A stretch of DNA of 64,000 nt from a virus. Under the pieces are notes generated by a model that searched no databases, was not told the origin of the DNA, and saw only the letters and a list, made by a program, of their open reading frames with translations. Positions 58,258 through 59,997 of this stretch are shown piece by piece. The position numbers were made by a program, and so were the translations under genes. The DNA lies in the IMG/VR virus record IMGVR_UViG_3300010389_000002. One strand, written 5' to 3'. The stretch's first letter is position 1; each line of letters starts with the position of its first letter.

Positions 58258-58526
58258 TCTGTTTCTTTCTTTCTGTTGGAGTGGTAAAGGGAAGCTAGAG
58301 CATCATCAACATCAGAAGTGATACTAACATCCGAAGAACGAATGTAGATCTCTCTGTTCCCAGAGAAGGGAGGGAATACGGAAAGAACTGTACCTTTTCC
58401 GTCGCCCATCTGCTCAAGCGAGTACGGATATTTTAGCACACAATCGGGGTCACCCCACTCGGATTCTGGAATTGTTTCAATTTCAGAAACAACCCAGAAC
58501 CCATCAAGTCTAAAGATTTGAATCAT
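58254..58526 (-). CDS. Small beta-rich hypothetical protein
   Basis: WVVSEIE..GDPDCVLKYPY. Confidence 0.6.
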   Translation of the reverse strand: MIQIFRLDGFWVVSEIETIPESEWGDPDCVLKYPYSLEQMGDGKGTVLSVFPPFSGNREIYIRSSDVSITSDVDDALASLYHSNRKKETE

Positions 58527-58915
58527 CCCATTGTTACTCCAGCTACAGAAACATCCGAAGCCCAGATACTCTTAGTCTCTGGTTTTGGATTCTTAGCTTC
58601 TTCGATTCTCTTTTCCGCTGCCTCTACCTTAGCTTCATACGCTTTCCTAAGACTCTCTTCTGGTTCACCAATGGTTAGAACAGAATCATACGGAATCTTA
58701 TACTGATACTCAGAAGAGAAAGGCATCCACCTAGTAAACTGGACCTGTACTTCTTTAGATGGTTCATCAGTTGGTTTTGAAACTAGATCAAGTTTAAAAG
58801 GATGTGCCATCATTAGACAAACACCACGCTTGTCTTCGCCCTCTCCTTTAAAAACCTCTTGGAGATTAGTAACTACTGTTTCTCCAGTCATCAACATAAC
58901 TACACTTGGTTTCAT
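58523..58915 (-). CDS. Small beta-rich hypothetical protein
   Basis: VVMLMTGETVV..PF..FTRWMPFS. Confidence 0.6.
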   Translation of the reverse strand: MKPSVVMLMTGETVVTNLQEVFKGEGEDKRGVCLMMAHPFKLDLVSKPTDEPSKEVQVQFTRWMPFSSEYQYKIPYDSVLTIGEPEESLRKAYEAKVEAAEKRIEEAKNPKPETKSIWASDVSVAGVTMG

Positions 58916-59265
58916 TCTTCAATCTCCTGTTGTTCTTGATTCATAGAAGCTGTTGCTCTCTCTGCCCACACGGGATCAAAGGGGCTAACTACTTCAATAT
59001 ATTTTTCTTTGATGAAGTTCTTTGGTTCGGCAATATGCCTACATCCCCCAAATCCCAGACGGATTTCATTATCCTGAATATAAGGATTGTACGCAGAGAA
59101 TCTAATATTTGTCTTACCCTCTTCGTCAACTTGATTTTCCAGGAGGAAAGGATAAGACATCAGGAAACAAAGAGACTCTCCATCAGGTGACTTTAGTTCG
59201 CTTAGTCTAGTAATGATACTAGTATTGTCAGTCAAAACAACAACTTTAATGTCCATAGTTATCAC
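58912..59265 (-). CDS. Small beta-rich hypothetical protein
   Basis: IKVVVLTDNTSII..YPF..FSAYNPY. Confidence 0.6.
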   Translation of the reverse strand: MITMDIKVVVLTDNTSIITRLSELKSPDGESLCFLMSYPFLLENQVDEEGKTNIRFSAYNPYIQDNEIRLGFGGCRHIAEPKNFIKEKYIEVVSPFDPVWAERATASMNQEQQEIEE

Positions 59266-59278
59266 AAAGAATAATTAG

Positions 59279-59317
59279 AGTATACCATAAAAATACGAAG
59301 GGGGCAAGTGCCCCCTG
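59279..59317 (-). promoter_or_regulatory. hsp20 terminator carrying a sigma70-like promoter
   Basis: AGGGGGCA-CT-TGCCCCCT hairpin; TTGCCC-N17-TATACT. Confidence 0.55.
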
Positions 59318-59323
59318 TATAAT

Positions 59324-59761
59324 TTATTCTGTTAAGAGTTGGGGTGACGAACCACCAATTTCGTAAACGGTTTTCTTTTGGTGTTCCGGAATAATTTTTT
59401 CCAGAGAAATTAGAAGTAGACCGTCCTCAAAACTTACGTCTTGGATTCTTACGTCATCTGCTAACTGCCACGAATGATTAAAGGATCGTTTAGATAATCC
59501 TTTGTGGAGATACTGGACTTCAGAATCTCGGTCTTGAACTTTGGAGGTAACTTTGAGAATGTTTGATTCAGAAGAAACTTCAATCTCCTCTGCTCTAAAG
59601 CCCGCCAAAGCGATTTCAATTTCATAATTGGAACTGTCTCTCTTTAGAATATTATACGGAGGATAATTGGTAGTTTTTGTGCTCAATGTATCTAAAGCAG
59701 AAAGCATCGAGTCGATACCAATTCCGTAAGGATACAATGTATCCCAGCTGTATTTATTCAT
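59324..59761 (-). CDS. hsp20: Small heat shock protein (Hsp20/IbpA family), 145 aa
   Basis: NYPPYNI..EIALAGF..YLHKGLSKRSF..DGLL.I.L..IIPE; SD AAGGAG before Met at 59761. Confidence 0.95.
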   Translation of the reverse strand: MNKYSWDTLYPYGIGIDSMLSALDTLSTKTTNYPPYNILKRDSSNYEIEIALAGFRAEEIEVSSESNILKVTSKVQDRDSEVQYLHKGLSKRSFNHSWQLADDVRIQDVSFEDGLLLISLEKIIPEHQKKTVYEIGGSSPQLLTE

Positions 59762-59816
59762 GGTTGTCTCCTTGTATAAGCGAGTAACTTTGTATGGACC
59801 CCGAAGGCATCCAATA
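59759..59816 (-). promoter_or_regulatory. ROSE-like RNA thermometer candidate
   Basis: CTC-G-CTT/AAGGAG hairpin with bulged G over the SD, preceded by a UUCG-loop hairpin. Confidence 0.6.
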
Positions 59817-59997
59817 CTATTTAAACGCAATTACAAAATAGAGACTAGTGAGAAGACCGAACTTTTTTATACGGACATCAGTATAGTATAACCCATTCTC
59901 CTCACCCAATCTAAGTGTGCCTTTCCCCAAGGTACGGTCATCCACTTAGTCTTGTTATCTTTAAGGAGCATGAGTTTTACTGTTCGATTCATAACGT

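Follow-up and report, generated by a model that had tools for sequence, protein, structure and literature searches.

Short ROSE-like RNA thermometers have been described in the ibpA leaders of Pseudomonas, where two hairpins are formed, a U(U/C)GCU sequence pairs with the Shine–Dalgarno (SD) sequence and the AUG stays free (Krajewski et al. 2013, PMC3669281). In these leaders hairpin II melts with heat while the G–C-rich hairpin I does not (PMC3669281). A second type, ROSE_2 (Rfam RF01832), precedes ibpA and ibpB in enterobacteria. The hsp17 thermometer of Synechocystis is not known to have the U(U/C)GCU motif. It likewise masks the SD sequence of a small heat-shock gene, in the phylum of the host considered here, and uses a single hairpin (PMC3669281). 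In full-text searches we found no paper that links the hsp20 gene of cyanophages, or of any phage, with an RNA thermometer or a ROSE element, and a 2024 review merely speculates that phage RNAs might act in a thermometer-like manner. We analyzed the leader of hsp20 in a viral stretch of 64,000 nt, IMG/VR record IMGVR_UViG_3300010389_000002 (‘the window’ below means this whole stretch). The leader has the structural features of the short two-hairpin ROSE-like class, and it may act as a thermometer. We put at about 70% the probability that the hsp20 mRNA, which encodes an IbpA-type protein, carries a ROSE-like 5′ leader of ∼50 nt in which the SD sequence is partly hidden and is opened by warming or by release of Hsp20.

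The leader and its gene consist of the following parts.

59818..59825, minus strand: A/T box TTTAAATA, putative promoter −10 or late-type element, read from the sequence.
59795..59813, minus strand: hairpin I, UGGAU-G-CC UUCG GG-GUCCA, 7 pairs, bulged G59808 and UUCG loop (minimum free energy (MFE) fold, consensus and covariation).
59785..59794, minus strand: A-rich single-stranded linker of 10 nt, unpaired in the MFE fold and the consensus structure.
59768..59784, minus strand: hairpin II, CUC-G-CUU AUAC AAGGAG, 6 pairs (MFE fold, consensus and covariation).
59759..59767, minus strand: 6-nt spacer ACAACC and the ATG (59761-59759), unpaired in the consensus structure.
59324..59761, minus strand: hsp20, encoding a 145-amino acid (aa) small heat-shock protein (sHsp) of the IbpA type, class A (Pfam HSP20, E = 2.4e-14).

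The TTTAAATA box ends 4 nt before the first paired base of hairpin I. Within hairpin II, the anti-SD strand CUC-G-CUU (59784-59778) is joined through the loop AUAC to the SD sequence AAGGAG (59773-59768); UCGCU, at 59783-59779 inside CUCGCUU, pairs with the SD sequence around the bulged G59781. Both hairpins are contained in the MFE fold of the window leader, in which, as in the consensus fold, G59781 is bulged out. The motif CTCGCTT-N4-AAGGAG occurs once in the window. An original prediction for this DNA had named TTAAATA, the two hairpins, the UCGCU–SD pairing with its bulged G and a distance of 6 nt to the ATG, and all of these elements were recovered at the positions given above, on the minus strand.

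The original prediction named a lack of conservation of the hairpin as a ground for rejecting it; in aligned phage leaders both hairpins proved to be conserved. These leaders came from 80 IMG/VR loci, each with a gene for a relative of the protein (45–100% identity). The leader is present in all 81 genes, that is, the window gene and its 80 relatives, in 52–55 distinct sequences. Across 52 distinct leaders the structure is kept, with covariation: standard pairs fill 98.5% of the cells, compared with a mean of 90.9% after shuffling, and compensatory changes are found in 8 of the 13 pairs, a number reached by 0 of 500 shuffles. When the 3′ partners are slid by 1–3 columns, pairing drops to 33–65% of cells. 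RNAalifold, to which no structure was supplied, returned the same 13 pairs from 50 leaders. Covariation extends to all seven pairs of hairpin I, as in UGGA/UCCA, GAGA/UCUC, GAAGA/UCUU and GCGGAGUC/GAUCCGU, and the bulged G of this hairpin is invariant. Hairpin II is nearly invariant in sequence, with the G, C, U and U of the UCGCU motif region the same in every leader; its natural variants keep the pairing, either with a U–G pair (CUUGCUU) or through a compensatory change (GUCGCUU/AAGGAC), and the UUGCU form of the anti-SD is seen at two loci (L056 and L064). The length of the linker differs among relatives. It is this comparative evidence that goes beyond chance, because the window sequence by itself gives an ordinary fold energy and contains TTAAATA at chance level. 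Two other explanations of the conserved block were rejected. Against a coding N-terminal extension, the ATG within hairpin I leads into hsp20 through an open reading frame in only 7 of 53 leaders; against a terminator, hairpin I lacks a U tail.

We compared the leader with the described families. In an Rfam scan by E-value it gave one meaningful match, to ROSE_3 (RF02523), which covers the full model (positions 1–69) with 24.1 bits and E = 0.014; the leaders of relatives scored 24.8–32.6 bits with the same model, and the ROSE and ROSE_2 models gave no match on the phage leaders. Common to the ROSE_3 alignment are the hairpin I core GGAUGCC...GGGUCC, the anti-SD ACUCGCU, AGGAG and ACCAUGA, and the ROSE_3 positions (the G39 bulge, G51/52/54 of the SD sequence and G65 of the AUG) coincide with the numbering of the validated Pseudomonas ibpA thermometers. 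As in Pseudomonas ibpA and ROSE_3, there are two hairpins, the first with the core GGAU-G-CC...GG-GUCC and a bulged G, the second formed by U(U/C)GCU and the SD sequence around a bulged G, followed by an AUG that is unpaired in the consensus fold and by an IbpA-type gene. The 5′ untranslated region (UTR) is similar in size, a probable ∼50 nt in the phage versus 61–62 nt in Pseudomonas. Unlike the Pseudomonas leaders, the phage leader has shorter stems and a shorter hairpin II, is richer in A + U, has a putative phage promoter box in place of the sigma-32 promoter, and is carried by a virus of cyanobacteria. The enterobacterial ROSE_2 leaders share with it the UCGCU anti-SD with a bulged G and an IbpA-type protein with the Arg93 equivalent, whereas they have three stem-loops and a longer SD hairpin with a predicted stability of −5.2 kcal/mol at 37°C, compared with −2.8 kcal/mol. 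Both gene and leader are of the proteobacterial type, not of the cyanobacterial type as in Synechocystis hsp17 (PMC3827213 and the tree described below). We place the leader, which is viral and scores below the Rfam thresholds, in the short ROSE-like class already described. The evidence for its structure is good, and its function is putative.

The predicted energies fit the logic of ROSE elements, in which hairpin I is stable and hairpin II marginal. Hairpin I has a predicted free energy of −8.8 kcal/mol at 37°C and stays folded at 60°C, while hairpin II goes from −5.8 kcal/mol at 15°C to −4.4 at 25°C and −2.8 at 37°C. In-silico deletion of the bulged G59781 changes the latter value from −2.8 to −6.6 kcal/mol; the bulge thus costs ∼3.8 kcal/mol in silico, by which hairpin II is kept marginal. 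Across the 52 phage leaders hairpin II has a median of −2.8 kcal/mol at 37°C (interquartile range −3.0 to −2.8), and bacterial ROSE-like hairpins have a median of −2.9 kcal/mol, so that predicted stability does not tell the two apart. Because these stabilities are alike, we make no claim that the phage hairpin is tuned to cold water.

From these data we propose the following mechanism. Transcription would begin from a phage promoter box that lies shortly before hairpin I, not from a heat-shock sigma promoter. The stable hairpin I would probably protect the 5′ end and aid folding of the leader. In the weak hairpin II, UCGCU would pair with AGGA of the SD sequence around the bulged G, so that the ribosome-binding site would be partly masked at low temperatures, with the AUG left free. 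Warming would favor the open form and hence more synthesis of Hsp20, and release of leader-bound Hsp20 protein may have the same effect as warming. The predicted stability of hairpin I up to 60°C would also suit an element that senses nothing, in which hairpin I guards the 5′ end from decay and hairpin II sets a fixed, moderate rate of translation; a role of hairpin I in mRNA stability has been proposed in Pseudomonas (PMC3669281). Such a fixed attenuator has no need of a nearly invariant anti-SD with a bulged G in a helix kept marginal, and the homologous leaders are proven thermometers (PMC3669281). We consider this constitutive role improbable.

Several observations weigh against a thermometer of the ROSE type. 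The fold energy of the window leader is ordinary (z = −0.94), and 33 of 200 shuffled sequences fold equally well. The AUG is unpaired in the fold of the leader alone and in the consensus; when 18 coding bases are added, ViennaRNA prefers, below 40°C, an alternative fold that touches the AUG and in which the anti-SD pairs with the coding sequence, a result from a single sequence. Picocyanobacteria often initiate translation without a strong SD sequence, and masking of the SD sequence might then exert less control. A heat-shock signal is also ecologically less obvious, given that the temperature of the ocean is slow to change. Hairpin II of the phage lacks the upper G–C clamp that mattered in P. 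putida (PMC3669281). One RNA contig, described below, reads through the leader to 59916, so that in some transcripts the 5′ end may lie upstream of the leader. Finally, the original prediction assigned the leader to the ROSE type: the architecture, the IbpA-type gene and the conservation bear this out, while the score lies below the Rfam gathering threshold of every ROSE family (for ROSE_3, 43 bits versus 24.1 for the window and at most 32.6 for its relatives).

To follow the leader in other phages, a covariance model, R1, was made from 50 phage leaders. R1 matches the window once, at hsp20, and it also matches upstream of hsp20 in cultured phages outside the model, with 35–62 bits in Syn9, S-SM1, P-RSM3, S-RSM4, S-PM2, P-TIM40 and the OM43 phage Melnitz. 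Scores are lower on pelagiphages (26.6 bits for Mosig and 21.6 bits for HTVC115P). On HTVC008M the match of 15.3 bits (E = 0.032) aligns hairpin I only, and hairpin II was read from the sequence as CUUUGCUUU-AAC-AAAAGGAGG ahead of the ATG. None of the 10 cultured marine phages checked lacks hairpin I or a hairpin II built from U(U/C)GCU and the SD sequence. Scanning IMG/VR for CTCGCTT-N3-6-AAGGAG-N4-9-ATG gave at least 120 matches; among the 120 matches listed, 94 precede an hsp20-like open reading frame (ORF) and 7 more, cut by the end of the contig, look like hsp20.

These phages also bear on the possibility that the conserved CTCGCTT region serves a host regulator as a binding site on the DNA (a Pho box) or phage RegA as an RNA operator. 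In the window, regA lies directly upstream of hsp20.

60411-59998, minus strand: regA, upstream of hsp20 on the same strand.

In Syn9, S-SM1, P-RSM3 and P-TIM40, hsp20 is not adjacent to regA and the leader is kept all the same; the leader thus travels with hsp20, not with regA. SAR11 bacteria have the leader too, and we know of no RegA in SAR11, where no search for it was made. As for the Pho box, the sequence ATTCAAACTCGCTTAAATA upstream of S-PM2 hsp20 has been given as a putative one (PMC10976474). In our reading the same ATTCAAACTCGCTTAAATA (S-PM2, L142:904-971) is the linker plus anti-SD of a ROSE-like hairpin II, and the published data show neither binding of PhoB to the S-PM2 fragment in an electrophoretic mobility shift assay (EMSA) nor a response of the gene to low phosphate (PMC10976474). 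On the EMSA data we reject the Pho box reading of the S-PM2 leader. A RegA operator is unlikely and a PhoB site largely refuted, and we regard the two together as a very remote explanation of the conserved region.

The window Hsp20 is 34% identical to enterobacterial IbpA over its full length and 45–48% identical to SAR11 IbpA, and the best protein match in a 301-genome sample of the phylum came from SAR11, with 48% identity. In a published phylogeny, cyanophage sHsps had already fallen closer to class A of bacteria than to the sHsps of cyanobacteria (PMC3827213). A protein scan of species genomes gave two loci, including one in a Pelagibacteraceae genome, and wider sampling was centered on the SAR11 genome. 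The Pelagibacteraceae ibpA leader has the same two hairpins, with a bulged G in each, behind a sigma-32-like promoter, CTTGAAA-N-CCATATAA. Among 101 Pelagibacterales genomes, 51 were matched by R1, with one match per genome; in a sample of 150 further genomes from across the phylum, the model matched just 3. The 20 Pelagibacterales matches that were read (loci L084-L103, e.g. L088:1470-1570) all lie upstream of an ibpA of 148–150 aa and behind a sigma-32-like CTTGAAA-N-CCCATATA. SAR11 and pelagiphage leaders have the same hairpins and both bulged Gs as the cyanophage leaders (GUC-G-CC UAAU GG-GGC and CUUGCUU AACA AAGGAG); the SAR11 leaders differ from the cyanophage leaders in having the sigma-32-like promoter and the UUGCU variant of the anti-SD. 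No Rfam ROSE model matched the SAR11 ibpA leaders at E ≤ 1, ROSE_3 likewise gave no match on the SAR11 genome, and our literature search found no description of these leaders. An anti-SD of the U(U/C)GCU type was present in nearly all of 34 other proteobacterial ibpA/ibpB leaders, one of which is a bona fide ROSE_2 (71.7 bits).

The ancestry of the gene was examined in a maximum likelihood tree of Hsp20 (LG+C20 posterior mean site frequency (PMSF) model, midpoint rooting) built from proteobacterial and phage sequences, without a non-proteobacterial outgroup. All 23 cyanophage proteins form one clade (99/95). Its sister group comprises SAR11 and the pelagimyophages HTVC008M and Mosig (99/92), a result to be read with the A+T-rich composition that the cyanophage, SAR11 and pelagimyophage lineages share. 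A 100/99 branch parts the marine phage/SAR11 group from 33 other proteobacterial sequences. Most simply, a joint transfer of gene and leader would have taken place, in either direction, between marine T4-like phages and the SAR11 lineage, and the heat-shock promoter would have been replaced on the way. In the mechanism proposed above, the cyanophages would have inherited leader and gene together from an ibpA of the SAR11-type proteobacterial lineage, with the sigma-32-type promoter swapped for phage promoters. The hsp20 leader of HTVC008M (L143:380-490) is preceded by both a CTTGAAA box, which is like the −35 element of sigma-32 promoters, and TATAAATA, the T4 late consensus. This promoter region looks like an intermediate between the bacterial and the phage arrangements.

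Kinship with ibpA raises the question of which signal the leader senses. In E. coli, Cedecea and Vibrio, IbpA represses its own translation via the ROSE-type 5′ UTR until aggregates titrate it; Arg93 is needed for this, and IbpB, with Q at position 93, cannot repress (PMC10474464; bioRxiv 10.1101/2020.04.20.050740). By analogy, free oligomers of phage Hsp20 would bind the leader of their own mRNA and keep hairpin II closed, with temperature a minor input, and translation would be released when Hsp20 is drawn to unfolded or aggregating proteins, for example during late mass synthesis of capsid. Such feedback is compatible with a thermometer. Arginine 92 of the phage protein aligns with R93 of IbpA, and every one of 56 distinct phage proteins, 6 isolates and 20 SAR11 IbpAs has an arginine at the equivalent position; Q is found only in the three IbpB paralogues. 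Because of this invariance, we take Hsp20 feedback as a serious alternative, or addition, to heat sensing. The sequence of hairpin I, including its bulged G, is also kept from Pseudomonas to cyanophages, which is more than a simple stabilizing hairpin needs and fits recognition by a protein. Against feedback, the arginine is common across proteobacterial class A sHsps and thus discriminates weakly, and the C-terminal IEI oligomerization motif that E. coli needs for repression is YEI in the window protein. Among cyanophage sHsps, some have the C-terminal IXI motif and others do not (PMC3827213). Self-repression has been shown in gamma-proteobacteria only. We hold the feedback operator as a tentative explanation, one that we would not put first. 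In an ocean of steady temperature, a lytic phage would at least as plausibly sense its own load of unfolded protein as heat. A more elaborate version, in which the leader is mainly an aggregation sensor acquired from SAR11-type bacteria, with Hsp20 self-repression released by unfolded phage proteins and the supply of chaperone thus tracking the protein load of the phage itself, tuned by sea temperature and working without a host sigma factor, appears to us unlikely, although not far-fetched. The ROSE-like leader opened by warming or by Hsp20 release remains the reading that we prefer.

We also examined the promoter of this ROSE-like leader. The original prediction called TTAAATA late-promoter-like. 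In 48 of the 52 leaders an A/T box does occur at this place, 3–8 nt upstream of the first pair of hairpin I; the remaining four have an extra upstream hairpin, with the box further off. The box is mostly TATAAT (33 leaders), followed by NATAAATA (7 leaders), YTAAAT (7 leaders, including the window) and ATAAAT (1 leader). NATAAATA is the cyanophage late consensus, and UUAAAUA stands at the box position in Syn9, S-SM1 and P-RSM3. The heptamer TTAAATA itself is found 14 times in the window versus 14.2 expected, that is, at chance frequency, and was rejected on this count as a significant promoter signal; the position of the box stood, and its late character is uncertain. The box is a putative promoter. 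We found no statement on the temporal class of hsp20 in the literature searched. A sigma-32-type heat-shock promoter, which is usual for ROSE elements and not a defining part of them, is absent from the window leader, which has TTTAAATA instead. Because the window lacks a SAR11-like sigma-32 promoter, it is reasonable to infer that control of Hsp20 is independent of the cyanobacterial heat-shock regulon.

Since the outermost pairs of hairpin I covary, they are probably transcribed, which would place the start of the transcript at ∼59813. Its other end may lie at a hairpin directly behind the gene.

59289..59316, minus strand: intrinsic-terminator-like hairpin directly 3′ of the hsp20 stop, 7 pairs (6 G–C), T-rich tail.

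Metatranscriptome contigs were available from a ∼94% relative, all of them from salt-marsh runs of one year that may be a single campaign. RNA contigs at depths of 15–18 span hsp20 from the terminator to 59792-59800, and a contig of depth 2 goes on upstream; near the terminator the contigs end at 59274, 59285 and 59295. Other contigs extend to 59916, in another run, and to 59942. The neighboring regA is uncovered in four metatranscriptomes. These contigs give a weak hint of a monocistronic, well-expressed hsp20 message with a 5′ boundary near 59792-59800. The depth over hsp20 beside an uncovered regA is also a weak hint in favor of the constitutive, 5′-protecting role of hairpin I discussed above.

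If the leader acts as we propose, a conserved RNA switch provides a testable handle on hsp20, which belongs to the core set of 25 genes in T4-like cyanophages (PMC3037559). It would predict that synthesis of a phage chaperone in the most abundant marine phototrophs depends on temperature, on folding load, or on both, with a bearing on how infection yield varies with sea temperature. The comparison with SAR11 points to a regulatory RNA that moves with its gene from an alpha-proteobacterial lineage into cyanobacterial phages while the promoter is exchanged, and it would extend the ROSE family to viruses and to SAR11, which current Rfam thresholds miss. Should the aggregation-sensor reading be true, the leader would provide the first example of a chaperone feedback loop encoded by a phage, and an instance of a cis-regulatory RNA carried between bacterial phyla on phage genomes. 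New here are the SAR11 link, the pelagiphage intermediates, the argument from Arg93 and the reinterpretation of the S-PM2 ‘Pho box’.

The clamp-loader gene gp62 also lies upstream of hsp20 on the same strand as regA. With regA and gp62 in this position, the window is part of a T4-like cyanophage; its closest cultured relatives, S-RIM32, S-PM2, S-CAM1 and others, are ∼70% identical in DNA. Much of the 237-nt spacer between regA and hsp20 is occupied by an ORF of 41 aa (MNRTVKLMLL..., window 59867-59992, minus strand), which may be a small gene or mark an upstream transcript start. Downstream of hsp20, two neighboring paralogous genes of 130 and 117 aa are present at 58523-59265 on the minus strand. 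Their matches to DUF6561 are weak, 26.8 and 27.4 bits, on either side of the 27-bit Pfam cut-off, and the 130-aa paralogue has a weak Sm-like match as well.

Some contigs in the scans showed related arrangements. In four viral contigs (L155, L171, L211 and L232) a CTCGCTT-loop-AAGGAG hairpin without hairpin I precedes a gene for a protein of 63–75 aa that begins MLLYADMAIDAIQSS... or MVDYTKFDITKMF..., and in L171 and L232 this hairpin directly follows a terminator-like hairpin; the gene is possibly another one under SD masking. In a cyanophage contig, a match to the glutamine riboswitch (RF01739; L063:251-307, minus strand) that scored 31.4 bits versus a gathering threshold of 35 lies upstream of hsp20, at a distance of ∼500 bases. 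A 3.3-kb contig (L082) of a metagenome-assembled genome (MAG) labelled Candidatus Pacearchaeota carries a phage-like hsp20 with 41% identity. The promoter of this gene is TTGACA/TATAAAT, and its two-hairpin leader scored 18.5 bits with R1. This contig is probably viral or bacterial DNA that was binned into an archaeal MAG.

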